From UHGV virus genome UHGV-1376088: a stretch of 64,000 nt of DNA; one strand, 5' to 3'. The notes under the pieces were generated by a model, which saw only the letters and a program-made list of their open reading frames with translations, did not search any database and was not told the origin of the DNA. A program made the translations under genes and the position numbers. This DNA is from a virus. Of this stretch, positions 39,092 to 63,250 are shown piece after piece (within the stretch, counting starts at the first letter, position 1; the number at the start of each line of letters is the position of its first letter).

Positions 39092-39603
39092 CCTATTTCC
39101 TTAAGTAATTTGCGGTAATCGCCATCTTTTTCGAATATCTCTTTTTCTGTGATAAATCTATATTTTGCATTGATCTTATTTTCTTTTAAAAATACAACTG
39201 CGGCTCTAGCTTTTAGTTGTACATTTATTGCCTTTTTGGCAGACGAAGGTTTTATTTCGCATAGTTCTAATCTTCCATCTGAGTATAAGACCAATGCGTC
39301 GGGGATGTAATTCCTTCTTAGCCCGGAATTGTCTGTATATGGTATCTTCATTGGCTCTACGATGTATTTTATAACACTGCTATCAGTGTCCATTCCTTTG
39401 TAGAATGCATACTCGTATAGGCTTCTATATTCGATATCCTTGCCAGCCTTAGTGGAGAAATACTTCCCTGAGCGATATCGCTTACCCTTATTGAAGTAAG
39501 CGCCATTATTTTTTATATGCTCTTCTTTTGTATGTCTGGACTTTTGTATACGTGGAGATTTATTGCGCTTAGGCTTACCACGAATCCTTTTTGAAGCTGT
39601 CAT
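39088..39603 (-). CDS. 171-aa PD-(D/E)XK-type nuclease-like protein with a basic N-terminus
   Basis: IPDALVLYSDGRLELCEIKP fits D...(D/E)xK; Lys/Arg-rich N-terminal 40 aa. Confidence 0.45.
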   Translation of the reverse strand: MTASKRIRGKPKRNKSPRIQKSRHTKEEHIKNNGAYFNKGKRYRSGKYFSTKAGKDIEYRSLYEYAFYKGMDTDSSVIKYIVEPMKIPYTDNSGLRRNYIPDALVLYSDGRLELCEIKPSSAKKAINVQLKARAAVVFLKENKINAKYRFITEKEIFEKDGDYRKLLKEIG

Positions 39604-40928
39604 TTATTTGAACCATCTATTACGGACTGGTCGATAGATTTATCGACATATTTGCCACGTGTTGCGGCAGTTAACATATCAAGCTTATCTTTAAGTGACT
39701 GGCTACCGCTTCCCATACTTGCACCAGATGCTTGTACAGCGATCTTGGCTCGCTCTTTTCTTGTTGCCATCAGAGATTCTAATAATTTACTTCTTCTGTT
39801 TTTCAGTTTCTCTTTGATATTGAGATATCTTGATATGTCGTCTCTGGCGATCATATTGCCACCAGCATCGAATCCCATTAAATCTTCTTGGCTGAAATCT
39901 TGATGTGTTAATGATAGGATCTGAGTAACCCTTCTTTCATACAAGTCTATTTCAGCGAGTTCTGCAACCATTTGCATTTCTGTTGGGCTATCTGGCTGAA
40001 CGTTGAACTCTTCGAAGTATCTTTCTGTTTGGCTACGCAGATAGTCTTGCTCATAAATACATGGGGCACCTACTGGTGCCTTATTCATCTTGTAAAGCTG
40101 ACAGTTGTGGACCAATAGTCCTTCGGCAAAGAAATTGGAGTTTTTAAATACCTGGATGTCGTATACTGGGAGGACACCAACAACATCTATTGATTCAATT
40201 TTAGTAATTAAACAGTCCCCATATGAGTTGTCTTCTTCACTAAATAGGTCTTCGTATACTAGTTTACTTCCGATTGTAAGACCGTCATCAATAGATAGGA
40301 ATTTAAATTTAGAACCTCTTCCTTTTATAGCAAAGAACTGATGGTCTGACGTTGCCTTAATGCAATGGCCGTCTATGGTTCTAATTTCGTAAACTGTCTT
40401 CTCGCCGACATAGGCTGTGGCATATACCATGTCATGCTCAATACGTTTCGTCTTCGTATTGAATGATATGATTTTATCTCCGCTTTTAATTCGGTCTATT
40501 CTTACTTGTTTTCCATCGTGCATGGAGACCATGGAGTCTCCAGTTAGGCATGTCTCTTTTACCTTACAGTTTGAACCCCTACAAATCATTGGGGAGTATG
40601 TTGATATACCACCATCGGTTGATCGTCTCAAACTAGTGCTGAATGCTAACGCTTCATCTTCTGTTAGTACAATGTTTTCATACAGCTTGTCGTCTAATGA
40701 TAACGCATCTAGGTATCTAGCTCTCGTGATCTTATTATCAACAACTTTGATTCCTCTTGATGAAAACAAAATTGGAATAGATTTTGATTTAGTTTCTTGT
40801 ATCATTGAAACTGTTTTTTCAACTTCTGTTTTTGTCTTGGTTTTCTCTTTTTCTCTCATTTCATGAGCAGAGATTATACCTGCAGACAAATCGAACATTT
40901 CTTGTATTTCTTTATTTGGAATAGCCAT
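39600..40928 (-). CDS. 442-aa intein-containing protein (extein about 293 aa; possibly small terminase or another packaging-module protein)
   Basis: First gene of the late operon; Cys-rich extein junction (CRGSNCKVKET/CQLYKMNKAPVGAPC); contains a 149-aa mini-intein. Confidence 0.6.
   Translation of the reverse strand: MAIPNKEIQEMFDLSAGIISAHEMREKEKTKTKTEVEKTVSMIQETKSKSIPILFSSRGIKVVDNKITRARYLDALSLDDKLYENIVLTEDEALAFSTSLRRSTDGGISTYSPMICRGSNCKVKETCLTGDSMVSMHDGKQVRIDRIKSGDKIISFNTKTKRIEHDMVYATAYVGEKTVYEIRTIDGHCIKATSDHQFFAIKGRGSKFKFLSIDDGLTIGSKLVYEDLFSEEDNSYGDCLITKIESIDVVGVLPVYDIQVFKNSNFFAEGLLVHNCQLYKMNKAPVGAPCIYEQDYLRSQTERYFEEFNVQPDSPTEMQMVAELAEIDLYERRVTQILSLTHQDFSQEDLMGFDAGGNMIARDDISRYLNIKEKLKNRRSKLLESLMATRKERAKIAVQASGASMGSGSQSLKDKLDMLTAATRGKYVDKSIDQSVIDGSNK
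40104..40550 (-). mobile_element. mini-intein (Hint domain, no homing endonuclease) inside the 442-aa gene
   Basis: N-terminal Cys (CLTGDSMV, block A); TxxH block B (ATSDHQF); C-terminal LLVHN followed by the +1 Cys. The 149 residues are removed in-frame. Confidence 0.7.
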
Positions 40929-41244
40929 TAACTAATTATCCTGAGTCAAATTATTATTATTATATTCTTACCATGCTATACTTAAATAAACAGAACGGAA
41001 ATATATGCAGGTAGTAGTCTCGTATAATCTAGGTAGAATTCAAATTTCTATTTTACTATCGAATAATTTAGTATAGGCTAAATCATGGTCATAGGCAATA
41101 ACCGGATATATGACCCTAGAAGCTAACTCTGGTAGTGTAACCACGATTTAGCAGAACATCTCTAAAAAGCTTCCATAGTATACTTCCAATACAGGAAGCA
41201 GTAAATATTATTTGCTTAAGTAAGTTTCTTTTGCAAATAAAACA

Positions 41245-41267
41245 GGAGGTAGCACCAAGCTACCTCC
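41245..41267. other. perfect 9-bp hairpin GGAGGTAGC-accaa-GCTACCTCC in the 1.3-kb control region
   Basis: Inverted repeat seen directly in the sequence. Confidence 0.5.
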
Positions 41268-41485
41268 AAGTATTATCTAATTAATTGTAGACTACAACAA
41301 GCTTAAGTAAGTATCCTAAGCTTATGTTCGTTTCCTCTATTGGTAACTTAGGGCTGCGGTAGCAGCCTATGTATTATCTACATTACTTATGATTATATTT
41401 TCTTGTATTGAAGGGCCGGGGCCGCGTGACAGCGGCCATCTATTATAGACTGAATTTATTTTATTTTAGATAAATAATAGATACA

Positions 41486-41497
41486 GTTAGGCCTAAC
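41486..41497. repeat. perfect 12-bp palindrome GTTAGGCCTAAC
   Basis: Self-complementary; candidate protein-binding site in the divergent region. Confidence 0.4.
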
Positions 41498-42164
41498 CAA
41501 AACAAGCGGCTTGATAAATATAACCCGATCTAGCCATGTTGTATAACGTAGATGTCTTACTGATATAACTCTAATTGTAAGAGAGCTATATCCTAGGCTT
41601 TTTCTTTACCCATCTTGACCCTCCATGGAAACCACGGACCGTTAATACTTCCATTTGTAGTCATGCTATTTAGCATCATCTTGTAGCTCAATATGCTATC
41701 TCTACAAGACCAGAGATGTTTCATCTTCCCATGTGGCCGATTAGTATCGGTTACAATCCACTGCATAACAGGAAATTTATTTATACTCGCCACCTCTCGT
41801 ATTGCTTTGATATTTCAGGGAGTTTACGCTACTTCAACAACGAGTTTTCGATCGACTCCTTCGGTTAGGCTTGCCCACATCTAGGAGTTTCATTACTGCT
41901 TCGTCCGACCTCGCCTCTCGAGGTTATTTAGATTTTCATCTAAGACTAGTTCACAGTAAGATGATGTCTCTTGAAGGCCGGATGCCGTAGATTATCCCGA
42001 CTCAGCTTGTCCAGTCATCAACATCATGACCGTTATTATACGGATTTTTGACACAAATGTCAAGAACTATTTTAAAAATTTACATTCAAAAATTAGTATG
42101 GTGTACATATATTTTATATTTTTATAAGTGCTTGATTACAAACAGAATAAAGATTGTAAAAAAC

Positions 42165-42193
42165 TTGACTTTTATACCGTTTTAGCGTATAAT
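42165..42193 (+). promoter_or_regulatory. near-consensus sigma70 promoter (TTGACT, 17-nt spacer, TATAAT) for the 283-aa gene
   Basis: -35 TTGACT at 42165-42170, 17-nt spacer, -10 TATAAT at 42188-42193. It is flanked upstream by the inverted repeat TTACAA...TTGTAA. The ATG lies 80 nt downstream. Confidence 0.7.
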
Positions 42194-42272
42194 ACAATCT
42201 CTATGTGTGAGGGGACACACTTAAAATATTTCTAATAAAAATAACAATAAAAGAATATAGGATTACAACAAT

Positions 42273-43124
42273 ATGAGCAAAAGCGAATTTCTTCAAGACC
42301 AATTTTTCCAATCTCAACCTGAGCGTATAACTTATTACAACCTTGGTTCAACATGTGCTATGTGCCTTACTCCACGTGTGGCTTATAATGACGCCACCGG
42401 CGTTCGTGATGTATGGGCATCAAACGAAACCGTAAGCAACGAAGTTGGCCGTATCTTTTACGAACAGAAAATGCGCAACCCTCTGTTCTCATGCAACGAG
42501 GTTAATATTTACCCATTGATCTACATGGTAAATAGAGAAGAGAGAACCTCAATGCGCGGCATTGAAGAATTAGAGAACAAATACTTCCTAAGCGCCGCTA
42601 TTATTGAATACCCAGTATATCGATACACATACAAGCAGCCTTATGATGAGCTTAAAGATAAACCGATCCCAGAGCTTCGTAAATTGGCAACCGGCGAATA
42701 CAGAACTAATTATACTGCCGTTATAGAACAAAGCCTAGATGGGTATATTGTTCCACCGAAAGAACTAGTAGCAATGCTGATCAATACAGCTATTAACTAC
42801 AATAGAGGCATTAAGTGGGTTCCACACAAAGACATTAGAATCAACTTGTGTATGCCTAAATCTCTAATTGCTGAGATAGAAGACCATCTGAAGGATGGCG
42901 AAGTTAATCCTTACGGAACACCTACCGGCGTAATGGAATTTCTTGCAGCAGAGTTCGGCGAAGATTCTATCAAAGACCTAGAAAACAAGTTCTCTAAATC
43001 GAATCTGGTAATCAAAGAGATTGATGATTCAACCGATTCAAGAATGGTTAAAAATCTCCCATTGGTTTATAGAGAAGTGATGGATTCCTTCTCAACATCA
43101 TTTAGATCAAATCCAATTAGTTAA
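42273..43124 (+). CDS. 283-aa early protein of unknown function
   Basis: ORF track; driven by the consensus host-type promoter; ends at a bidirectional terminator. Confidence 0.6.
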   Translation: MSKSEFLQDQFFQSQPERITYYNLGSTCAMCLTPRVAYNDATGVRDVWASNETVSNEVGRIFYEQKMRNPLFSCNEVNIYPLIYMVNREERTSMRGIEELENKYFLSAAIIEYPVYRYTYKQPYDELKDKPIPELRKLATGEYRTNYTAVIEQSLDGYIVPPKELVAMLINTAINYNRGIKWVPHKDIRINLCMPKSLIAEIEDHLKDGEVNPYGTPTGVMEFLAAEFGEDSIKDLENKFSKSNLVIKEIDDSTDSRMVKNLPLVYREVMDSFSTSFRSNPIS

Positions 43125-45451: not shown

Positions 45452-45957
45452 TATTTAGCCCCATCAAACCAAGCTTCCCAATCTTTCTTTCCTGTCAGAG
45501 AAACGTTCTGTAAGCCACGATTCTCCTTGACAGAATGAACAAGGTCGCTAGTGTTATAGTTCATATCCCCGAACTGATAGGTCTTTTTCGCCAATGCAGA
45601 GGACTCCCAGTCATGTGGTGACATGGCTGATGCCTTTGTCCGGCGAATCATATCCTCAGCAGCATGGTCTGCTCCTGAGAATTTGTTGTTAAGGCTTCTT
45701 AGAACATTTCTAAGACCCTTCCCATGAGCACCTGAAGCAGCGTAAGCCAATCCGGCACCAACAGCACCACCAAAAGTTGCACCGCCGACAGCACCACCAA
45801 ACATCGTGGTGTTATCAGAGACAGCACCTTTAGCAACACCGTATCCGCCGAAGGCCGCAGCGCCAGCAGTTGCAGCAGCGGTGAATTGTGCCTGTTTCTC
45901 CGAACGCATCAGAAACTCAGACATCCCACCGTAAATCGATTGTCGCAAATTTGCCAT
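45451..45957 (-). CDS. 168-aa glycine-zipper-rich protein (paralog-like to the 204-aa protein)
   Basis: FGGAVGGATFGGAVGAGLAYAASGAHG; first gene of the leftward lysis-region operon. Confidence 0.5.
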   Translation of the reverse strand: MANLRQSIYGGMSEFLMRSEKQAQFTAAATAGAAAFGGYGVAKGAVSDNTTMFGGAVGGATFGGAVGAGLAYAASGAHGKGLRNVLRSLNNKFSGADHAAEDMIRRTKASAMSPHDWESSALAKKTYQFGDMNYNTSDLVHSVKENRGLQNVSLTGKKDWEAWFDGAK

Positions 45958-46037
45958 AACAAATCACTTTCTAAAAAGCTTTTTAAAAATCTGAATCAAT
46001 AGACACAAGAGAGGGAGCGACCCTCCCTGTAGAAACA

Positions 46038-46066
46038 ATTAGAACAGAAACAATAGAAAAAGTCAA
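46038..46066 (-). promoter_or_regulatory. candidate sigma70-like promoter for the leftward Gly-rich/lysis operon
   Basis: On the minus strand: TTGACT, 17-nt spacer, TCTAAT. It shares TTGACTTTT with the 42165 promoter. The leader would contain the hairpin AGGGAG-cgacc-CTCCCT. Confidence 0.35.
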
Positions 46067-46143
46067 CTAACTATCCTTTGAAAATAGACAAATTTTAAAA
46101 CGGCCGGCCCGACAAAACACAAAACACCACACCCCATTAATTC

Positions 46144-46461
46144 ATGCCCCCTGGGGCAAACCAAGGGGGATAGTTGACCCAAAACACAGAATGGCCCGGC
46201 GCGGCGGACCCATCATTTTGCCGAAGGCAAAGACTGATTGGGGGTTGGTTGAATGGGAAGTGAGAATGGATGACTGAAGTAGACGTGAAACTTGAGGTGT
46301 GTGGATGTGTGAGTGAGGATGTGTGTGATAATGCGTGTGGATCAAATAAAAATATGAAATGAATTGTTTTGAGTAATGGTTGATGTAATGCGTGTGGGTA
46401 CCTGGTGTCTATTAATGATATCCCTGTGGATGGGGGTATGTCCGGGATTTGCCCCCTGGGG
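46144..46461. repeat. direct repeats TGCCCCCTGGGG (46144-46155 and 46450-46461) bracketing a G/T-rich tract that contains direct repeats TAATGCGTGTGG (46329-46340 and 46386-46397)
   Basis: Seen directly. The flanking 46078-46140 is A/C-rich on the same strand. Confidence 0.6.
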
Positions 46462-46523
46462 TGGAATGGACTGCTCTCATCTACATCTTTTATTTTATTC
46501 TTTAGTCTAAGAAAGGACTTACC

Positions 46524-46691
46524 ATGAAAAACTTTATCATCGCTTCTGTTGCAGTATTCTTTTGCTTTTCTTTTTACTCTTTCATGTTCTCTGGAGCCAA
46601 AAACGCTGCTGAGAATGTAAAAGGAAGTATGAGTGTCACTTCTGTTGACAAAGCATGTAAGAGTAATAAAGGCCTGTGTAAGGAACTATAA
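46524..46691 (+). CDS. 55-aa small secreted/membrane peptide with two Cys
   Basis: AAAGGA SD 8 nt upstream; hydrophobic signal-like N-terminus (IIASVAVFFCFSFYSFMFSGA); not in the ORF track (below 60 aa). Confidence 0.45.
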   Translation: MKNFIIASVAVFFCFSFYSFMFSGAKNAAENVKGSMSVTSVDKACKSNKGLCKEL

Positions 46692-46837
46692 GGTCTATAT
46701 TTAAGGGTGTGTGGGATATTAGTCCTGCACATCCTTTTATCTTATCTATAATGGCATTCAATACAGAGTGTTATTATAAATGAGATAATTCTGTCTCATT
46801 ATTTTGTTTATTATTTACCAAAGAAAGGTATCATACT

Positions 46838-47008
46838 ATGAAAATCCGTCATATCATCGCCATCGTTGCTTCTGTTATCGCTATTAACGCTGCTTTTGGT
46901 GGCATTAGTAACGCTCTTAAACGCAGTGATTACAATCATTGCCGTGTAACTACTCACATGACAGTACAAGAATGCGAGAACGCTACTGGATATGAAGTAA
47001 CCAAATAA
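46838..47008 (+). CDS. 56-aa small secreted/membrane peptide with two Cys (paralog-like to the 46524 peptide)
   Basis: AAAGG SD; signal-like N-terminus (IIAIVASVIAINAAFGG); CRVTTHMTVQEC. Confidence 0.45.
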   Translation: MKIRHIIAIVASVIAINAAFGGISNALKRSDYNHCRVTTHMTVQECENATGYEVTK

Positions 47009-47136
47009 TCTCTTAGTCCTGAGTACGACAATAAACTGCTCACTGTCCAGAGATGTGTGTCTCTGCTGATGATGGGTAAAAATACCCGAAACAGTTTATT
47101 TTTTATTTTTAAAAACTTTTCAAAAAGGAAATTATT

Positions 47137-50100
47137 ATGTCAACTATCACTTTCAAAACCTTCACTTCTACTGTCAACGAAAAAGCTGCTGCTTCTTACG
47201 AAGCTGCTAAAGCTAATTTTGAGCACACCGCCAATATTAAGGCTGGCGTTCATAAAGTGCCAGGTGTTGAGGTTGTTGCTTTATCTAGTAGCAAAGCGGC
47301 CGCAATGAAGCCAGAAGTAGTGGCTATCGTTAAAGATGGGGCCGCTGTAGCAGTCAAAGAAGTGGGCTCTCGTTTAGAAGCCTTGGCATGGGCTAATGCA
47401 GAAGTAGAGGCTATTGTTTTGAATGAAGTAAAGGAGACTGAAATGTCTTATAGTTTTGAAGTAGAAGGTGTACCTACAATGGTACAACGTGTAGAGACCG
47501 TTAAAGCCGGTAAAACTCCTACCAAAGAGGAGCTGAATAATCTCAAAGATTGGGCTCGTACTATTTGTAAGATCAAGGCTGGTGAGGCCTTGCCTATTGT
47601 AGGCAAAGTGGAGATCAATATTAGACGTCCAAGCAAAGGTAGTGTAAGGGTAGTTGCACAACGTGGGACTTTGGCTACATCTTTGGTAAATTCCCCGCTT
47701 GGCCGCGAAACTATCGCCCGCCACGCATTTGTCTCTTACAAAGATGGCATCGTATCTGTCACTGAAAGTATTGAGACCCTTATTGACTGGATGGCCGGTA
47801 TTAACACCGAAGGCGTCAAATTGGTTGATGCTCTCAAACGTAAGAGCGGCGGTGTCGTTGTTGTTAAATCTGAAAAACCTGCTCCTAAGGGCGTTAAGGT
47901 TCAACAAGGTGATCTCCTGAATATCTCACCTGACACATCTTGGAAGCTCGGCATGCCGGTTAGTGATGCCATGTTTATTAGCCGCAAGGCGCCAAACTCT
48001 ATGGTTGCTGTTAACCATCCTCAATTAGCTGGTAAATATATCAGCGTATATGACGTGAAGAAAGCCATTGCACGTGGCATTCTGAATCCAGACTTGGACA
48101 CTAAAGTCTCCATTGGGGTTCGTAAGGTGGCAGTTCTTTTATCCGTTACTAATGAGGCTGGCGACAAAGTTAAATCTCTGGCTGATGTTAAAGATCATCC
48201 TCTGGCCATGAACTTTGCTGGCGGTGCTTGTTATGGCCGCAAGTCTTTGATTCAACAGTACGGTAAAATGCGTGTTGTTAGCTTTCATCATCTGAAAGGT
48301 GTAGTTACCAACGTTAGAGAGATCGATGCATTGGTCGACTACCTTGATGTAGACATCATCTCTCCTATGCTGAAATCCAAAGCTGTCGGTGTTACACATG
48401 CGATCATGGGTGGTGATCTAGCTGACTTTATGTTGCGTCTGCTGGAGGATGAAAGTTTCCGTGCATCTGCCAATGCGGCTATTGCGATGAATAGCAAATC
48501 TGTCAATGTTGACGGTTTGGTTTATGAGTTCGCAATTATTGAGGAAGAGATTTACGTCTCTGACTTCTACACACTGCAGGGTCATCGTCGAGTCGGTTCT
48601 GAAATCACCGTTAATGATAAAATCAACGGTGTTGAGGTAGAAGCACCTGAGCAAACTCTGATGAATGAGCTCTTATCTGAGCTCAAAGGTGGTAATACTA
48701 CCTACTCTCCAGTGGTTCGTATTCTGGAAATGAAACGAGCCGGCTTAGTTGAAGCAGTGTCCCACTCTGCTGAGGGCGGCGTATTGTTGGCGGATCAGAT
48801 GATTCGTCAATACGGTGAATCTCTGTTCAAGTCTTTCATTTCCGGCCGTACCGGTAAACGTACTGCCAAAGCAGTTGCAGCTGCCAAGAACGTGGATTGG
48901 TCTTGTACCGCCAACGAGTTCTTAGCTATGACTCGTACTTGGTACTCTGATAAGTTTGCTGTGATGTTTGCTGGTAATGGTTCATTATCAGTTGAACAAG
49001 TGAAATATACCGCTCTTGTTGGTGACGAAACTTCTCAGTACATCATGAAGCAATTCCTGGTTAACCTGTTTAACGGTTATGGCAAATTCCCTGGATTATT
49101 GAATATGCCTCGTGGTTTTGAAATCAAAGCTGGTGATCACAGCTTCGTGTTCCCGGGCTCTAGCTTCTGGGATAAACCTGAGACTATTACTGGTGATCAC
49201 GTATCTGGTCTTCAGTTCACTGGTGGAGACTTCTTCAAGTCTCTGGCCTCTATTATCCTGATGGCAAAAACTCGTGGCACTAAGACCTGGGAAGCCGCTG
49301 GTGTTATCAAAACGCACGCCAAGCATTTACTGGCTATTGAAGAAACCTTTGGTTCTCACAAGGGCTTAAAATTCAGCTTGCCTAAAGGTCGTAGCTTGCC
49401 AGTATCTTACCACTTTGAAAATGGGCTCAAAGTTATCACTGCGGATCGTAGCTATAAGGAGGCTGCAAAACGTGGTGAAGTGGGCGCTATTAAGTTCCCT
49501 ATCTTGATGGAAAACAATTTCCGTCTGTATGAGACCGAGGTTAAAACTCTGATGAGCTTTGACTCTGATGCCGAGCTTGAGCTGAACCGCTTTATCTGCG
49601 AATCAGTAGTATTCGTAGATGCATTGTCTCATATGAGCAACCGTGATGATGCGGATGGTGACCGCTTGACATTGTTCTGGGCTAAAGGTTATGAAGGCCA
49701 AGAGCAATGGAGCGAGGATAAACTGTTGGCATGTAACTCTGCCAAACAACAGCTCTCTTATGTGGAAGACGAACTGGGTTCTCTTAACACCAAAGAGATC
49801 AATGAGCGCTCTGTTCAAGTTTGGGGCAAAGAAGATGTTCAGCCTGCTGTCGAAGAAATCGTAGCTGCTAAGACTGGTGTGGGTAGCGAGACTAATAATC
49901 TTATTACATTGACCCATTTAATCCGTAACAAACTGGGCTATTCTAATATGGCCAACTTGGCTATTGATGCTATGGGTATCTTGCTGCAGAAGGAAGTTGT
50001 GGAAAATATGAAGCATAGCAACGGCAACGTTCGCTTCTGCGAATATTTAAACCTGCGCAACAAGGAGACTGATCTAGACTGCATGTCTGAGGCATTCGAG

Positions 50101-50547
50101 AAGGCTTTCGAATTGATGTTCATCGAAGATTACGTAATGGCGTTTGAAATTGCCAAAGTCTTTGTTGAGCTGTTCGAAGAAGACAAACGTTCTCGTGGTC
50201 AGCAAGGCTACCGTTGGAATAAAACCAACGCAGTTCGTATGGCACACACTGCGACTTGGAAAAATGTACACTTCGATGTGTACACTAAGGATGTGTCTGA
50301 GATTTATAACACATCATTCTTCTTTGGCCTGGACGATGTAAAATCCGTCAACAATTTGCTTGACATGAATGGCAAATCACCATTCAGTTTTATCCTGAAG
50401 GCTTTGAGCCGCGAAGTCTTGGCACAGAAACTCGTTATCGCCGAGACCAAAGCCGCTGAAGCTGAAGCGTTGGCCAATGGTGAGACTGTTGAAGCTGAGT
50501 CTTATCATGAGGTTGTAGATATGGACGAAGCTATTGATATGCTGTAA
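47137..50547 (+). CDS. 1136-aa protein of unknown function carrying an NRDDADGD (DxDGD) motif; speculative RNA-polymerase-like or other metal-dependent enzyme
   Basis: Long ORF with good SD (AAAGGAAATTATTATG) and moderately optimal codon usage; no Walker A, polymerase A/B/C or Toprim motifs found by eye; motif MSNRDDADGDRLTLFW. Confidence 0.6.
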   Translation: MSTITFKTFTSTVNEKAAASYEAAKANFEHTANIKAGVHKVPGVEVVALSSSKAAAMKPEVVAIVKDGAAVAVKEVGSRLEALAWANAEVEAIVLNEVKETEMSYSFEVEGVPTMVQRVETVKAGKTPTKEELNNLKDWARTICKIKAGEALPIVGKVEINIRRPSKGSVRVVAQRGTLATSLVNSPLGRETIARHAFVSYKDGIVSVTESIETLIDWMAGINTEGVKLVDALKRKSGGVVVVKSEKPAPKGVKVQQGDLLNISPDTSWKLGMPVSDAMFISRKAPNSMVAVNHPQLAGKYISVYDVKKAIARGILNPDLDTKVSIGVRKVAVLLSVTNEAGDKVKSLADVKDHPLAMNFAGGACYGRKSLIQQYGKMRVVSFHHLKGVVTNVREIDALVDYLDVDIISPMLKSKAVGVTHAIMGGDLADFMLRLLEDESFRASANAAIAMNSKSVNVDGLVYEFAIIEEEIYVSDFYTLQGHRRVGSEITVNDKINGVEVEAPEQTLMNELLSELKGGNTTYSPVVRILEMKRAGLVEAVSHSAEGGVLLADQMIRQYGESLFKSFISGRTGKRTAKAVAAAKNVDWSCTANEFLAMTRTWYSDKFAVMFAGNGSLSVEQVKYTALVGDETSQYIMKQFLVNLFNGYGKFPGLLNMPRGFEIKAGDHSFVFPGSSFWDKPETITGDHVSGLQFTGGDFFKSLASIILMAKTRGTKTWEAAGVIKTHAKHLLAIEETFGSHKGLKFSLPKGRSLPVSYHFENGLKVITADRSYKEAAKRGEVGAIKFPILMENNFRLYETEVKTLMSFDSDAELELNRFICESVVFVDALSHMSNRDDADGDRLTLFWAKGYEGQEQWSEDKLLACNSAKQQLSYVEDELGSLNTKEINERSVQVWGKEDVQPAVEEIVAAKTGVGSETNNLITLTHLIRNKLGYSNMANLAIDAMGILLQKEVVENMKHSNGNVRFCEYLNLRNKETDLDCMSEAFEKAFELMFIEDYVMAFEIAKVFVELFEEDKRSRGQQGYRWNKTNAVRMAHTATWKNVHFDVYTKDVSEIYNTSFFFGLDDVKSVNNLLDMNGKSPFSFILKALSREVLAQKLVIAETKAAEAEALANGETVEAESYHEVVDMDEAIDML

Positions 50548-54861: not shown

Positions 54862-56241
54862 ATGACTATGAATCAAATCGAAACTGGCAACCTGAACACC
54901 GGCCGTAGCAAATTCCACAGCGTTTCTGGCCAAGTTGCAACTCCAATGGCATCAAGCCGCCGCACCTTTTACGTCTTGGACGCTCGTCCAGATGAAGCAG
55001 AAGCATTGGGCTATCGTGTATTCGTGTACAAACTGATGCATATGATTGCAAATGCCCCTATGTCTCGCGGTAATGGCCGTGCTTGCTGGGTAGCTACCAA
55101 TGCCGACGATGGTGTGCAATACACTGAAGGTATGACTACGAACCAAATCGTAGCAGCCGTCCGTAATGCAAATGCCAATGCAATGGAATTCTTGGACGCT
55201 GGTTTCAACGGTCTGAGCATCCAAAACGGCAAATTGGCACACTTCCCGGTACCAGTAGGTCCAGCATTTGGTCCAGAATGGTATGAGAAAGCAAACGGTT
55301 TGGCACTGAAAGCTCTGAGTCTGTCTAAAGGCTACGAAGCTTTGTTGTCTGGCTCTGCGTTCATCAGCCACGACAAGAACATTGTTACCGCCAACGAAAA
55401 AGACGGCGAGCGTGTTCAGTTCACCGAACAACAGCTGGCCGAAATGATGGCCAAGATTGTAGGTGCATACAAAGCCGAAATCAAACGCCTCGTTGACGCA
55501 GGTGCAATCGCCACTTCGACTGCTATCTATGTTGGTGCAAACGGCCTGAGCCCTTGTATTGTCCCAATTGCAGCAGCCAGCTACAAAGTAAATAGCAACG
55601 GCAAGCAAATTGACGTCCGTACTACACCTCGTGCATACGGCCGTGTCTCTCCAAACTTCTGTCTGACTATTACTGGTCAAGCCGAAATCACCACTTTGGA
55701 GCAAGACGAATTGCATGAAGGCTATTTGGCTGGTGTCCAAGTGACTGAGGGTAACAATCCTACCCAATACTGCCGCAAGTTCGTGAACTTCAAGGACAGC
55801 CGTGGCAACGATATTACTGTACGTGCAGTAATGTACAGCAACGGTAATAACGGCCGTGGACAAACCCGCGCCGAAGCCTTTGAAAATGTCAGCACCAACG
55901 CCGATGAAATCATGTTCACCGAGAACAATGTGTTAGGCTTTGAAAGCCGCACTCCTCGTGAAGACGATGAAACCGGTCAACCATGGGTAGTTACAGCACG
56001 TGTAACCATGGACGGTTATATTGTTAGCCGTAACGAAGCAGGTAGCACTGCTGTTGTTGCAGACATTGACGTTGACGCACTCGATGTAGACGGTCTGGAC
56101 TTGGGCGACGTGGACATCTTCGCAGATACTGCTAAAGTAGAAGCTGAGAAACCTGCTGCAGCCAAAGAAACCAAACGCACTCGTCGTGGTCAAGCTCAAC
56201 AAGCTCCGGCTAACGAAGAGAGCGACGATACTCCGTTCTAA
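54862..56241 (+). CDS. 459-aa highly codon-optimized protein of unknown function (acidic C-terminal tail)
   Basis: ORF track; AAGGA SD; E. coli-optimal codons throughout; followed by a strong terminator. Confidence 0.65.
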   Translation: MTMNQIETGNLNTGRSKFHSVSGQVATPMASSRRTFYVLDARPDEAEALGYRVFVYKLMHMIANAPMSRGNGRACWVATNADDGVQYTEGMTTNQIVAAVRNANANAMEFLDAGFNGLSIQNGKLAHFPVPVGPAFGPEWYEKANGLALKALSLSKGYEALLSGSAFISHDKNIVTANEKDGERVQFTEQQLAEMMAKIVGAYKAEIKRLVDAGAIATSTAIYVGANGLSPCIVPIAAASYKVNSNGKQIDVRTTPRAYGRVSPNFCLTITGQAEITTLEQDELHEGYLAGVQVTEGNNPTQYCRKFVNFKDSRGNDITVRAVMYSNGNNGRGQTRAEAFENVSTNADEIMFTENNVLGFESRTPREDDETGQPWVVTARVTMDGYIVSRNEAGSTAVVADIDVDALDVDGLDLGDVDIFADTAKVEAEKPAAAKETKRTRRGQAQQAPANEESDDTPF

Positions 56242-56296
56242 TAGAGCCAGATACGGGCGAGCGTAAGCGAGCCCCTATTTGAAGTCCACTTGAATG

Positions 56297-56330
56297 CTGG
56301 TGTGCATGTATTTGTGCACCAGTATTTTTT
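56297..56330 (+). terminator. rho-independent terminator after the 459-aa gene
   Basis: CTGGTGTGCA-tgtatt-TGTGCACCAG (10 bp, two G:U pairs) plus TATTTTTTG. Confidence 0.7.
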
Positions 56331-56341
56331 GTCTTTTATGA

Positions 56342-56377
56342 CTGGTTGACGTGTTGTGTCGGTCCCTTTTTATAGGG
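56342..56377 (+). promoter_or_regulatory. reiterated element, copy 9 (no ORF downstream)
   Basis: GTGTCGGTCCCTTTTTATAGGG; the TGACTGGTTGAC direct repeat is present at 56340 and 56396. Confidence 0.5.
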
Positions 56378-56480
56378 ATTTAGCTTTCAAATGATTGACT
56401 GGTTGACTGTGTTTTTGATGTGTATACGGACATACAATATAGACGGGCGCGGCTATCTTTGTGCTGGATAACAGCCCAAA

Positions 56481-56510
56481 CAGCTATAATAGTGTCGGTT
56501 ATACTACGGT
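56481..56510 (+). promoter_or_regulatory. reiterated element, copy 10 (TATAAT-AGTGTCGGTTATACTACGGT; no ORF downstream)
   Basis: Seen directly. Confidence 0.5.
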
Positions 56511-56535
56511 ACGTGTAATATATTAATGAACAGCT

Positions 56536-56920
56536 TAAAACGTTTTATATGGCTAAGGGAGCAACCTTATCTAAGTTGTTGATTTATATAGATACAGGAT
56601 ATTCGTTCAAAAGTAAACAATAGGCTAAAATTAAGCCTAAAATAGAGGTATCTAGCGCCGCAGAAAGGCTAATATAGGCAAGAATCATAGCAATAGAGCT
56701 TATATAATAGATAGTATAAGCTAAAATAGGTCTATAATGGACATATAGGCATATAATAGAGGCATGTAATATATTAATAATAGGCCCAGATGTGCTTTAT
56801 ATTCCTTGGGAGCATTTTATACTAAGTCCTTGATTTATATAGAGGCAAGATATTTGTTCAGGAATGAACAATAGGCTAAAATATGGTCCGATTTAAGCAA
56901 AAATATACAATATAACCGTA
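56536..56920 (+). repeat. two ~75%-identical direct repeats of about 120 bp (56536-56660 and 56795-56920) in an A-rich, ATAGG/TATAG word-rich, iteron-like tract
   Basis: Both copies share GGGAGCA...TAAGT..TTGATTTATATAGA..GATATT..GTTCA..AACAATAGGCTAAAAT. Confidence 0.6.
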
Positions 56921-56995
56921 AAAATAGGTCATTTTGCATGAAAAGTGGCTTCAAATGAGAATAATTCCTAAAGTATCATTTTCTCCTATAGCGGA

Positions 56996-57030
56996 TACCG
57001 ACCTCTGAAAAGTGTCGGTTATTTTACGGT
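56996..57030 (+). promoter_or_regulatory. reiterated element, copy 11 (hairpin ACCGAC/GTCGGT plus TATTTTACGGT; no ORF downstream)
   Basis: Followed by the direct repeat GTCAATATAGACAG (x2) and the palindromic GGACGGGCGCGTCC. Confidence 0.55.
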
Positions 57031-57100
57031 GAATATAGTCTAAGCAGTCAATATAGACAGTAATAGACGGTCAATATAGACAGGACGGGCGCGTCCTTGT

Positions 57101-57250
57101 ATTGATTAAAAGCATAAATAACACCAATAAAACCACCAATACAAACATCACAAGCACAAACAATAATACTACTACAATAGGTAATACAATACATACTATA
57201 TACAAGTATAGCAGGTATAATAAGCACAAATCCAATGCAACTATATAGGC
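57101..57250 (+). repeat. A/C-rich (about 80% A+C) low-complexity tract
   Basis: aaaccaccaatacaaacatcacaagcacaaacaataatactactacaatagg... Confidence 0.6.
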
Positions 57251-57529
57251 TAAGGTGTATCTATATGTGCATAAGATACGGGCTGTAGTCCAGGTACCGC
57301 AGACTATATTAAGTGCATTCATCTATTATTGTCTCTATTGGTCAAATCTTAGAGACAAGGGTTTGATGGACTGGACTTCCAGGTAATTTAGCCTATATTG
57401 TTGTAATACGGTCCGTATTTTAGGTAATGCAGTCTATATTAAAATGTCTAGACCTGTAAACAAGTGTCCAGACGTATATTTGGTTTATATAAGTGCAAAC
57501 CTATAAATAGGTGTCTAAGTTCTTATTAA

Positions 57530-57900
57530 TAGTTATATCTGTATTAGAGTCTATATTGGTACTTATGTATTTGTGTGCATAAGTTCTTATATGTTCTTTA
57601 TGCTTCTATTGGTATATTTGTTTTTTATTGTATTGGATTCTATTCTATTTTTATTTTATATGGGAGTGTATTTGTATTTATGGTTGAGTCTATTTTGTTT
57701 TGGTTTGTTGTTTATTTTTTAGTTGTTATATTCTTTATGTTTGTATTTGCTTTTAAGGATTGTTCTGATGAATGAATATGGTTGGGTTGTTGCTTTTGTT
57801 GTTTGTATTTTGTTTATTATTGCTTTTATGGATGTTTGATTTTTGCATCTATCTTTGTTTTTGAAGTTTTTTATTTTGGTTATTTTGGCCAATAAAAGAA
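57530..57900 (+). repeat. C-depleted T/G-rich (about 80% T+G) 370-nt tract
   Basis: ttgttttttattgtattggattctattctatttttattttatatgggagtgtatttgtatttatggttgag...; about 300 nt downstream of the A/C-rich tract on the same strand. Confidence 0.6.
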
Positions 57901-57905
57901 TAATG

Positions 57906-57930
57906 GGCCCGGCGGGCCTTGTTTTATGTT
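57906..57930 (+). terminator. rho-independent terminator closing the noncoding locus
   Basis: GGCCC-ggc-GGGCC plus TTGTTTTATGTT. Confidence 0.6.
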
Positions 57931-57961
57931 GCACTAACCGTTTTTAAGCCCCTATGAAAAA

Positions 57962-57987
57962 TCGATTTAGTGTCGGTTTTTCTATGG
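57962..57987 (+). promoter_or_regulatory. reiterated element, copy 12
   Basis: AGTGTCGGTTTTTCTATGG; ATG of the 113-aa gene 33 nt downstream. Confidence 0.55.
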
Positions 57988-58010
57988 TAAATATTATATA
58001 GGGAGTTATC

Positions 58011-58352
58011 ATGATTTCTATGATATTGTTTGGCTCTGCTATTACTTCTTTAGCTATATTGTCTATTCTTGCTAAGAGTAATGTAGACCTTTTATATAAG
58101 GTTTTGGGTTATGAAGCCTATGTAGATCTTTGTTTTTCCTTGATTATTGGTTTTGCTTGTGGTATTAGTGGTACTATGTCCGGCTTTGTTATCGGCGCGG
58201 CGACCGGTCTTATCTTTGGTACTTGCCTGTTCCTTCTGAAGAAGATGATCGGCTATAAAAAGTATGAAAATAAGACTTGGGTTTACTATCCTGCTAAGTG
58301 GCCTATTGGTGATTTATTCAAAAATATGTATTCTAAGTATGAATACATCTAA
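58011..58352 (+). CDS. 113-aa integral membrane protein (2-3 TM helices)
   Basis: GGGAG SD; hydrophobic segments. Confidence 0.55.
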   Translation: MISMILFGSAITSLAILSILAKSNVDLLYKVLGYEAYVDLCFSLIIGFACGISGTMSGFVIGAATGLIFGTCLFLLKKMIGYKKYENKTWVYYPAKWPIGDLFKNMYSKYEYI

Positions 58353-62613: not shown

Positions 62614-62802
62614 ATGTCTAATAAATTAAAAGAAATTGGTCTTCTTGAGCAATTTCTTTCTGAAGGTGTCTATTATAGTGCAGATGAACTTATCACTGTT
62701 ATAAATGGCATCAAGAGCGAGTTTAACAATGTAACCATAACTCTTGAACCGCATTCCGGCGGGAGTTATATGGTTGTTTACGGAGAGCACAAAGATGAAT
62801 AA
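62614..62802 (+). CDS. 62-aa hypothetical protein
   Basis: ORF track. Confidence 0.4.
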   Translation: MSNKLKEIGLLEQFLSEGVYYSADELITVINGIKSEFNNVTITLEPHSGGSYMVVYGEHKDE

Positions 62803-63250
62803 GCAAATCCTTATTGCGGCTCTTTTGTTGGCTGCAAGTTTTAACGTTGAAGCTGCTAAAAAAGAACGCTCTTCTTTGTCTGAAGTAAAAGCATTGGCAA
62901 CCGCTATCCATCATGAAGCCCGTGGCGAGTCATTGGCCGGTAAAAAAGCTGTTGCTAATGTAATCATGAATCGTGTTAAACACAAAGATTTTCCGAATAC
63001 TGTAAACGGTGTAATTGCTCAGCGTGGCCAATTCCAGTGGTATCGTAATAAGAAGTTACGAGCTAAAACTGGCTACGATAAAGAAACTGAAAAAATTGCA
63101 CAGGCCGTTTATTTGGCCCATAAGACGAAACATCATGTTGACAATACCCGGGGAGCTATTTTCTTTTCCTCCAATGGGAAACGACCGGCTCCGCGTGCAA
63201 TTAAGCCATATCGTATTGGCCGACATGTATTTTATAAACTGAAAAGTTAA
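62795..63250 (+). CDS. secreted SleB/CwlJ-like cell-wall hydrolase (Hydrolase_2 family)
   Basis: Signal peptide MNKQILIAALLLAASFNVEA; motifs HHEARGE, AVANVIMNRV and QRGQFQWY; start trimmed to the ATG with a GGAG SD. Confidence 0.6.
   Translation: MNKQILIAALLLAASFNVEAAKKERSSLSEVKALATAIHHEARGESLAGKKAVANVIMNRVKHKDFPNTVNGVIAQRGQFQWYRNKKLRAKTGYDKETEKIAQAVYLAHKTKHHVDNTRGAIFFSSNGKRPAPRAIKPYRIGRHVFYKLKS

Follow-up and report, generated by a model that had tools for sequence, protein, structure and literature searches.

The 64,000-nucleotide stretch of DNA studied here, referred to as the window, is a piece of virus genome UHGV-1376088, an uncultivated myovirus-like phage with a genome of about 185 kb. 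Our subject is a locus in the right part of the window, between the gene for a 459-aa protein and that for a 113-aa membrane protein. Over 1727 nt (56275–58001) it contains no stop-to-stop open reading frame (ORF) of at least 90 codons, the longest such gap in the window. A preliminary description had seen no credible ORF until position 58011; this holds for ORFs of ordinary size but not for two conserved micro-ORFs (57680–57775 and 57768–57839). About 1.4 kb of the locus is non-coding. Its parts are of known kinds in a new arrangement, with two overlooked micro-genes in addition, and we tentatively read the whole as a composite intergenic control region, punctuated by transcription signals, together with a micro-gene operon. 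The features are listed below (A and D numbers denote alignments and repeats, L numbers loci in other phages).

56254–56335, plus strand: GC-rich box GGGCGAGCGTAAGCGAGCCCCTATT directly 3' of the stop codon, then the intrinsic terminator of the 459-aa gene (terminator scan; stem 56292–56327 and T-run); both conserved in relatives (alignments A1, A2, A4)
56339–56407, plus strand: G/T-rich leader with TGACTGGTTGAC twice (56339, 56396); conserved in L002, L007, L020 and L021
56344–56373, plus strand: hairpin element copy GGTTGACGT/GTGTCGGTC with CCTTTTTAT, within the G/T-rich leader (terminator scan, element survey)
56436–56470, plus strand: GC hairpin ATAGACGGGCGCGGCTAT, then CTTTGT; paralogue of the hairpin module at 57083, same module in L001 (repeat D8)
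56491–56512, plus strand: element 9, a solo 3' arm AGTGTCGGTTATACTACGGTA with neither upstream complement nor T-run; conserved in L001, L018, L020 and L021
56521–56660, plus strand: copy 1 of a locus-specific module of about 150 bp (nhmmer); core CTAAGTTGTTGATTTATATAG; integration host factor (IHF)-type site AATCAACAACTTA on the minus strand at 56572–56584
56772–56924, plus strand: copy 2 of the module (nhmmer, repeats D1 and D14); IHF-type site on the minus strand at 56823–56835
56953–56992, plus strand: conserved block AAATGAGAATAATTCCTAAAGTATCATTTTCTCCTATAGC, shared by the clade of the window and the L003–L006 clade (A1, A6); only a 5-bp GAGAA/TTCTC helix, no covariation
56997–57030, plus strand: element 10, hairpin ACCGAC/GTCGGT with TATTTTACGG; family-wide covariation
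57047–57108, plus strand: GTCAATATAGACAG twice, hairpin GGACG-GGCG-CGTCC (57083–57096; stem in the scan 57082–57097) and tail CTTGTATTGATT (repeat D13, terminator scan, A6)
57101–57250, plus strand: A/C-rich tract, 70.7% A+C, the window maximum for 150 nt
57294–57557, plus strand: centre, with 17–21-bp repeats of the GTAATGCAGTCTATATT family (copies at 57294, 57383, 57403, 57424 and 57541; tandem 21-mers at 57381–57440)
57530–57900, plus strand: T/G-rich, C-poor tract, 75.8% G+T and 5.7% C, the window extreme
57680–57775, plus strand: micro-ORF A (from 57662 with its Shine–Dalgarno (SD) sequence GGGAG, 57662–57666); MVESILFWFVVYFLVVIFFMFVFAFKDCSDE, 31 aa, one predicted transmembrane helix and an acidic tail
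57768–57839, plus strand: micro-ORF B, overlapping the 3' end of ORF A; MNEYGWVVAFVVCILFIIAFMDV, 23 aa
57905–57930, plus strand: intrinsic terminator GGGCCCGGCGGGCC with TTGTTTTAT; stem 57905–57919, which also scores on the minus strand
57969–58010, plus strand: element 11 AGTGTCGGTTTTTCTATGGTAAATA, SD sequence GGGAG and start of the gene for the 113-aa membrane protein; nearly invariant in the eight relatives of alignment A1

The homologous interval, from the 459-aa gene to the 113-aa gene, was recovered from 35 loci, which represent about 16 distinct sequences in three clades; the 459-aa proteins of the compared loci are 71–100% identical. The relatives are metagenomic contigs of 171–189 kb. 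Megablast and tblastn searches of GenBank phages with the locus, the 459-aa protein and a 1136-aa protein encoded upstream gave no match, nor did a scan of GTDB genomes with the 459-aa protein alignment. In all relatives the interval lacks ordinary ORFs and keeps its position, while its length ranges from 1219 to 2556 nt. Strains with a 99–100% identical 459-aa protein still differ by whole blocks of the locus. As an example, L021 is missing one repeat module, the stretch that holds copy 1 being absent between two copies of CGTGTAATATATTAATGA at the breakpoints, of which the first lies directly 3' of the solo element arm; the centre of the region is replaced in the same strain. Duplication, slippage and deletion change most of the locus rapidly; a few blocks show strong conservation. 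The preliminary description had considered a decayed gene remnant, to be expected if related phages encode ordinary proteins here. All of the about 16 versions are ORF-poor at the same position, and since every relative keeps such a region, variable even between near-identical strains, the locus is not a decayed gene. A template/variable repeat pair of a diversity-generating retroelement was rejected, as the mismatches are not adenine-specific and no reverse transcriptase is encoded nearby. A search for uptake sequences (the Hin and Apl types of uptake signal sequence and the Neisseria DNA uptake sequence) found none.

Terminators and hairpin elements

Nine terminator-like sites were found between 55.5 and 59 kb, where 2.2 are expected, and terminator-type hairpins cut up the locus on the plus strand only. 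The landmarks given in the preliminary description were all recovered, in place or a few bases off. The terminator of the 459-aa gene (56297–56330 in that description) has its stem at 56292–56327, followed by a T-run, and the one closing the region (57906–57930) consists of the stem at 57905–57919 and TTGTTTTAT; the latter is conserved with compensated stem changes in L002, L007 and L020. The duplicates of TGACTGGTTGAC (56339 and 56396) and of GTCAATATAGACAG (57047–57084, repeat D13) and the hairpin GGACG-GGCG-CGTCC (57083–57096) are all present. The 11-nt sequence TTGTATTGATT is invariant in all eight relatives aligned and in all ten of A6; its first C is a T in L001.

Four of the hairpins in the locus belong to a gene-punctuating family of the form CCGGCAC-loop-GTGTCGGTT-TTTTAYGG. 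This family has nine matches in the window against 0.03 expected, all on the plus strand between 51030 and 59737, and the exact copies all lie downstream of the gene for the 1136-aa protein. Copies 9, 10 and 11 of the preliminary description are present at 56492, 57012 and 57970. Between 50.6 and 59.7 kb a conserved hairpin with T-run and TAYGG element follows almost every small gene. The elements sit about 10 nt after stop codons and 42–51 nt before the next start.

Upstream of GTGTCGGTT, its complement is nearly always present. Hairpin statistics are based on 146 distinct instances from the window and its relatives, in our own register-based count rather than an independent alignment: stems are mostly 7–14 bp long, arm positions 1–8 are paired in 74–97% of the instances, and compensatory changes occur from CG to TA at arm positions 1 and 3 and from AT to GC at position 9. 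A TTTT run follows the hairpins, with the exception of the copy at 56492, which is not terminator-like. Conservation does not end there but runs past the T-run (TTTTaTGg.A) as far as +20, with the G at +17 reaching 1.4 bits over 190 instances. Of the two arms, the 3' one is constrained, and it often faces its partner in G·T pairs.

By their anatomy, the elements look like intrinsic terminators. Because conservation passes the T-run, the 3' arm is constrained, and the copy at 56492 is conserved without hairpin or T-run, a second, sequence-specific role is suggested, possibly that of a promoter. What the preliminary description called promoter-like elements are the 3' arms of covarying terminator-like hairpins, but the conservation past the T-run is compatible with the promoter role proposed there. 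A literature search with the element sequence retrieved primers only. PeSL cassettes, known from T4-type phages, are short, conserved composite terminator/promoter motifs between small genes, and are associated with insertions and deletions in plastic regions (PMC2839356, PMC4122927). The elements described here resemble them as a conserved stem–loop repeated between the small genes of a plastic region, which in L021 has suffered a loss between two CGTGTAATATATTAATGA copies. They differ in that their sequence is unrelated, and their putative promoter, which lacks a sigma-70 look, is not placed next to the hairpin but overlaps its 3' arm.

Two sigma-70-type sequences were observed outside the element family. 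The best match near the locus, TAGAAA-16-TATAAT (10/12; 57993–58020, minus strand), points leftwards from the start of the 113-aa gene to the 57905 terminator and could give an antisense RNA of about 80 nt over element 11. A perfect promoter of this type, TTGACT-17-TATAAT, lies at 42166–42194 (plus strand) upstream of a gene starting at 42273; host polymerase therefore reads canonical promoters.

A duplicated module with an IHF-type core

The two direct repeats of about 120 bp in the preliminary description (56536–56660 and 56795–56920) could be extended to 56521–56660 and 56772–56924 (nhmmer, E 1e-29 to 1e-31). The copies share 75 nt at 79% identity without gaps and are the conserved part of a 251-nt tandem duplication with two diverged copies. 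Profile searches found one to three copies in every clade, always on the plus strand and, within the sequence examined, at this locus only. Conservation of the repeats among related phages holds for the module but not for most of the iteron-like repeats, which vary between clades. The module core is conserved at a divergence at which its flanks are unalignable. Its invariant part, CTAAGTnnTTGATTTATATAG, is kept in the copies of all clades and fits the IHF consensus WATCAANNNNTTR with an A/T-rich flank. RNAalifold gave no consensus structure for the module on either strand, and only trivial hairpins for the modules and the conserved block, with 0 compensatory pairs. A minus-strand sigma-70 promoter in the module (TTGAAC-16-TATAAA) was discarded, as it holds in the clade of the window only; so were ORFs of 18 and 24 codons inside the module, whose starts or frames are not conserved.

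Searching IMG/VR with the core as an exact 19-base pattern gave at least 119 occurrences in 93 distinct contexts. These belong to unrelated phages, and their flanks share nothing. Exact DnaA boxes lie near the pattern in ten of the 93 contexts, as against none of 442 background windows, and tRNA 3' halves are sometimes found beside it. In GenBank the core is almost confined to phages of IHF-bearing Gammaproteobacteria, mostly with Vibrio, Escherichia, Pseudomonas and Salmonella hosts. In D3112-like Mu-type phages its distance from the left end is about 930 bp, which is a Mu-like operator position, and in Vibrio phages it lies about 2 kb from a record end. In the IMG/VR loci (L036–L124) and the GenBank phages, the 21-mer CTAAGTnnTTGATTTATATAG is mostly single-copy and often near DnaA boxes, iterons or tRNA-derived att-like sequences.

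IHF sites with this consensus are known from phage control DNA (PMC10380432, PMC8942017), and the 21-mer looks like a near-optimal IHF site. Like the known sites, the module core fits the consensus, and the same 21-mer occurs in intergenic DNA of Gammaproteobacteria phages; unlike them, the predicted site lies within a larger conserved module, which is duplicated. As no consensus RNA structure was found and the core is an IHF-type site recurring in unrelated phages, the module most likely works as DNA. The near-restriction of the core to Gammaproteobacteria phages in GenBank indicates that the host is probably a proteobacterium.

Micro-genes, skewed tracts and RNA folding

At the 400–1700-nt scale, the locus is the most AT-rich DNA of the window (lowest G+C) and its most strand-skewed part. 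The skews seen in the preliminary description are real, the A/C-rich tract being the window maximum and the T/G-rich tract the window extreme, but both had been put too high at about 80%. A smaller pair of the same kind was said to exist near 46 kb; its A/C part (46078–46140) has 74.6% A+C, and its G/T part (46200–46430) only 63% G+T with 10% C.

Within the T/G-rich tract, ORFs A and B form a predicted operon of two overlapping micro-genes, each of which should encode a single-pass membrane peptide. ORF A is always 31 codons long and keeps a K/R-DCSDE end. Position 2 of its codons, where the T is kept, is the least variable, most changes falling on positions 1 and 3. The spacing between SD sequence and ATG is 7 nt in L020 and L021 and 13 nt in the window, after a 6-nt duplication. 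Gene callers have called the exact ORF A sequence as a gene on nine public contigs. In ORF B, changes confined to third positions are synonymous, and the stop alternates between TGA and TAA at the same place. A 73-nt deletion in L002 fuses the two ORFs in frame. Other clades have different hydrophobic micro-ORFs at the same position, which are preceded by an SD sequence in L001, L023, L026 and L003; in L004 the positional micro-ORF is kept, with an upstream GGGG that fails the SD filter. No toxin family in Pfam or PHROG matched the micro-peptides.

Coding sequence accounts for about 160 of the 370 nt of the T/G-rich tract, and the remaining 150 nt upstream are leader. Since hydrophobic codons have T at position 2 and G or T at position 1, they explain a large part of the T/G-rich, C-poor composition. 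The long non-coding RNA with a GU-rich body, which had been proposed for this tract, is not supported: the tract is largely a micro-gene operon, and neither an Rfam family nor a conserved RNA structure was found. Rfam scans of the locus in the window and in L012 found no family, and ARAGORN found no tRNA.

Several other small frames were rejected. A 66-aa extension of ORF A is interrupted by a frameshift in L020 and L021, and a third micro-ORF (57836–57895, VFEVFYF) has lost its start in L007 and L020. The frames of micro-ORFs in the first G/T-rich leader are not conserved, nor is the start or frame of an ORF of 17 codons that lies within the conserved block. A minus-strand gene in the A/C-rich tract (‘NQYK’ frame, open in all clades) has no SD sequence and no conserved start, and its conserved part is hairpin DNA.

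A/C-richness after the conserved hairpin and the near-invariant CTTGTATTGATT tail is kept in 11 of 11 relatives, whereas the sequence itself is not. In the minimum-free-energy fold, the A/C tract (57108–57251) pairs colinearly with 57687–57827, and the 906-nt RNA from 57030 to 57935 folds with z = −5.3. Compensating indels between the A/C and G/T tracts were not supported.

The GTAATGCAGTCTATATT repeats of the centre, among them a 21-bp tandem repeat of 2.9 copies, occur in the subclade of the window only. They are reverse-orientation copies of AATATAGAC. Words of the AATATAGAC type number 65 in the window against 25.6 expected, five of the eight exact copies lying in the locus, and in several relatives their orientation flips between A-rich and T-rich halves.

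Interpretation and alternative explanations

The 1136-aa protein is an orphan encoded at 47137–50547 (plus strand). It contains GKMRVVSFHHLKGVV at about residues 376–390 and NRDDADGD at residues 835–842. Homologues with 19–29% identity share an invariant DxDGD motif (D838, D840, G841, D842) as well as G376, R379, S382, K387 and K413. The DxDGD motif and this set of G, R, S and K residues are a signature of two-barrel RNA polymerases such as YonO (PMC5467207), which makes the protein, as a lead, a candidate RNA polymerase with two barrels in a single chain, comparable to YonO or crAss gp66.

The explanation that we prefer, with a confidence somewhat short of even, is that the locus is a composite intergenic control region with a micro-gene operon, and not one RNA gene, a dead gene or a classical origin. 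The conserved 3' arms of the elements would be transcription starts, perhaps for the candidate RNA polymerase of the phage, and each transcript would be stopped by the next hairpin, giving short non-coding transcripts of about 95, 510 and 70 nt as well as a single micro-gene mRNA of about 0.9 kb, the U/G-rich coding part of which could pair with its long A/C-rich leader. The IHF-bent modules would act on the DNA, setting transcription or replication priming into the downstream cluster of membrane-protein and endolysin genes.

Several observations count against this proposal. The 1136-aa protein has no match in PDB or Pfam, its assignment being by motifs, and its AlphaFold 2 model is unusable (predicted local distance difference test, pLDDT, 37). 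The sigma-70 scan showed no excess (13 sites found, 13.6 expected). The micro-ORFs are tiny, all three frames of the T/G-rich tract read as hydrophobic, and the sequence of ORFs A and B is conserved in the subclade of the window only, with positional analogues elsewhere. Compared with composition-matched shuffles, the A/C-to-U/G duplex is only slightly better (z −0.65 to −3.6), and a 12-nt deletion in L020 and L021 removes its best helix without compensation. Masking of the micro-genes by their leader is therefore something we infer with reserve. Furthermore, hypervariability extends over most of the locus, so that a large share of it may be spacer.

The most AT-rich 400–1700-nt stretch of the window, adjoined by promoter-like elements and retained at its place in all relatives, might be expected at a replication origin, either of the T7/T4 type (phage promoters and AT-rich unwinding, RNA-primed) or of the iteron/IHF type. 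The IHF-type sites, with a motif found elsewhere near DnaA boxes, the 21-bp tandem repeats, and the short direct and inverted repeats with their excess of AATATAGAC words and orientation flips would also fit. The primary origin of T7 has two phage-polymerase promoters followed by an AT-rich region. The locus is similar in having putative phage-specific promoter-like elements beside such DNA, and dissimilar in that it is much longer, interrupted by terminators and without a skew switch. The cumulative GC skew of the window reaches its minimum near 46 kb, and the skew itself is positive to the left and right of the locus as well as across it, a reading confounded by gene orientation. Moreover, there is no DnaA-box cluster, the locus having two matches with one mismatch and the window a total at chance, and no recognizable initiator gene adjoins the locus. 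Conservation of the repeat arrays does not extend across clades, strains that are 99% identical differ by the gain or loss of whole modules, and the hairpin and T-run signals are strand-specific, as expected for transcription. The origin with iterons put forward in the preliminary description is favoured by the IHF-type site and the AT-richest DNA, but DnaA boxes and a skew switch are missing, and we regard an origin at this place as rather unlikely. By skew, the better origin candidate is 45957–47137. This interval contains the cumulative skew minimum at the point where the leftward and rightward gene blocks diverge, a palindromic GC box GGCCCGGCGCGGCGGACC between A/C-rich and G/T-rich tracts, two copies of GCCCCCTGGGG (46146, 46453), and a pair of small genes whose peptides would be secreted or membrane-bound (46525–46692 and 46840–47007). 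A related proposal, in which the GTGTCGGTT-TTTTAYGG elements are promoters of the candidate two-barrel enzyme, and the non-coding transcripts that it makes on AT-rich DNA bent by IHF either serve as replication primers (an RNA-primed origin with a YonO-like enzyme) or act as abundant decoy RNA, appears improbable to us.

An abundant, unstructured A-rich non-coding RNA of about 250–550 nt, running from 56492 to the 57012 hairpin with one to three module copies and serving as a sponge for protein or RNA by its sequence, would account for the GTGTCGGT element that precedes the module(s) in every clade, for the hairpin and T-run after them in the clade of the window, and for purifying selection on the module core. 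Such an RNA has little probability, as no conserved secondary structure, Rfam match or complementary target in the window was found, the module copy number is not conserved, and the core is a known type of DNA site, present in unrelated phages at origins, att-like sites and operators. We give equally little credence to fold-back control of toxic micro-peptides, in which the A/C leader masks the U/G-rich ORFs A and B until processing or until an antisense RNA acts. Type I toxin mRNAs such as hok and fst encode tiny membrane peptides with a single helix and a charged tail and have a long leader that pairs with the coding region. The predicted peptides of 23–31 residues are built in this way, and the folding energy of the 57030–57935 RNA, the colinear pairing, the A/C-richness kept in all clades and the 57905 stem that scores on both strands point in the same direction. 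Against this, the pairing is barely above composition, the deletion in close strains is uncompensated, and neither peptide matches a toxin family. A packaging (cos/pac), genome-terminus or recombination site around the IHF bends is very improbable. In its favour, other conserved blocks lie on either side of the IHF-type sites, an arrangement also seen in lambda cosB, and the core lies near a record end in Vibrio phages. Fragmentary metagenome contigs stop inside the locus (L018, L019, L022, L027, L028 and L030), and the nearest relatives of the large terminase (TerL) include that of Bacillus phage 0305phi8-36, a phage with long terminal repeats. The contig ends differ in position, however, and are most simply explained by breaks of the assembly where repeats occur or the DNA varies between strains; the gene for the large terminase lies at a distance of 21 kb, and the ORFs scanned include no integrase.

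The leftward block (2–46 kb) encodes tail sheath, major head protein, portal and large terminase, the last 41% identical to that of Acinetobacter phage ME3. Most products of the rightward block (47–64 kb), inside which the locus lies, are orphan proteins; the block includes a series of genes for small membrane proteins and one for an endolysin-like protein (62744–63250). Searches of Pfam, PHROG and PDB with the proteins flanking the locus were uninformative. The gene for the 459-aa protein (54862–56241, plus strand) is 50% G+C and is followed by a strong terminator. The protein, a member of an orphan family confined to this phage group, has at its end a linker that looks disordered and then an acidic tip (...EESDDTPF), which recalls the C-terminal tips of single-stranded-DNA-binding proteins; its AlphaFold 2 model is unusable (pLDDT 31).

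In the second-longest non-coding region of the window, the ORF-free stretch 40932–42260, we found a full-length HOLDH RNA (Rfam RF02997; 41663–42027, minus strand; 376.7 bits against a gathering threshold of 319.4, E 9e-102). HOLDH is a large structured RNA of unknown function, one of the motifs of Weinberg et al. 2017 (PMC8191799). With a full-length match, HOLDH RNA is therefore carried by this lineage of phages of about 185 kb. The neighbouring 442-aa protein (39600–40928, minus strand) contains an intein splicing domain (PF14890, E 5e-16) and a Hint module; its residues 125–200 weakly match a ‘DNA helicase’ family in PHROG (E 2e-6).

Non-coding DNA of 1–2.5 kb is rarely kept in compact phage genomes, and this phage lineage from human-associated metagenomes, which has no cultured relative, keeps such DNA at one fixed place. 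The IHF-type architectural module points to a proteobacterial host. Two micro-proteins have been overlooked by standard ORF lists, and a strongly skewed ‘non-coding’ tract can be simply a set of tiny membrane-peptide genes. A non-canonical RNA polymerase encoded by the phage may have its promoter or terminator code in the family of hairpin elements; if the elements are indeed promoters of the two-barrel enzyme, promoters embedded in hairpins would be a new promoter architecture.

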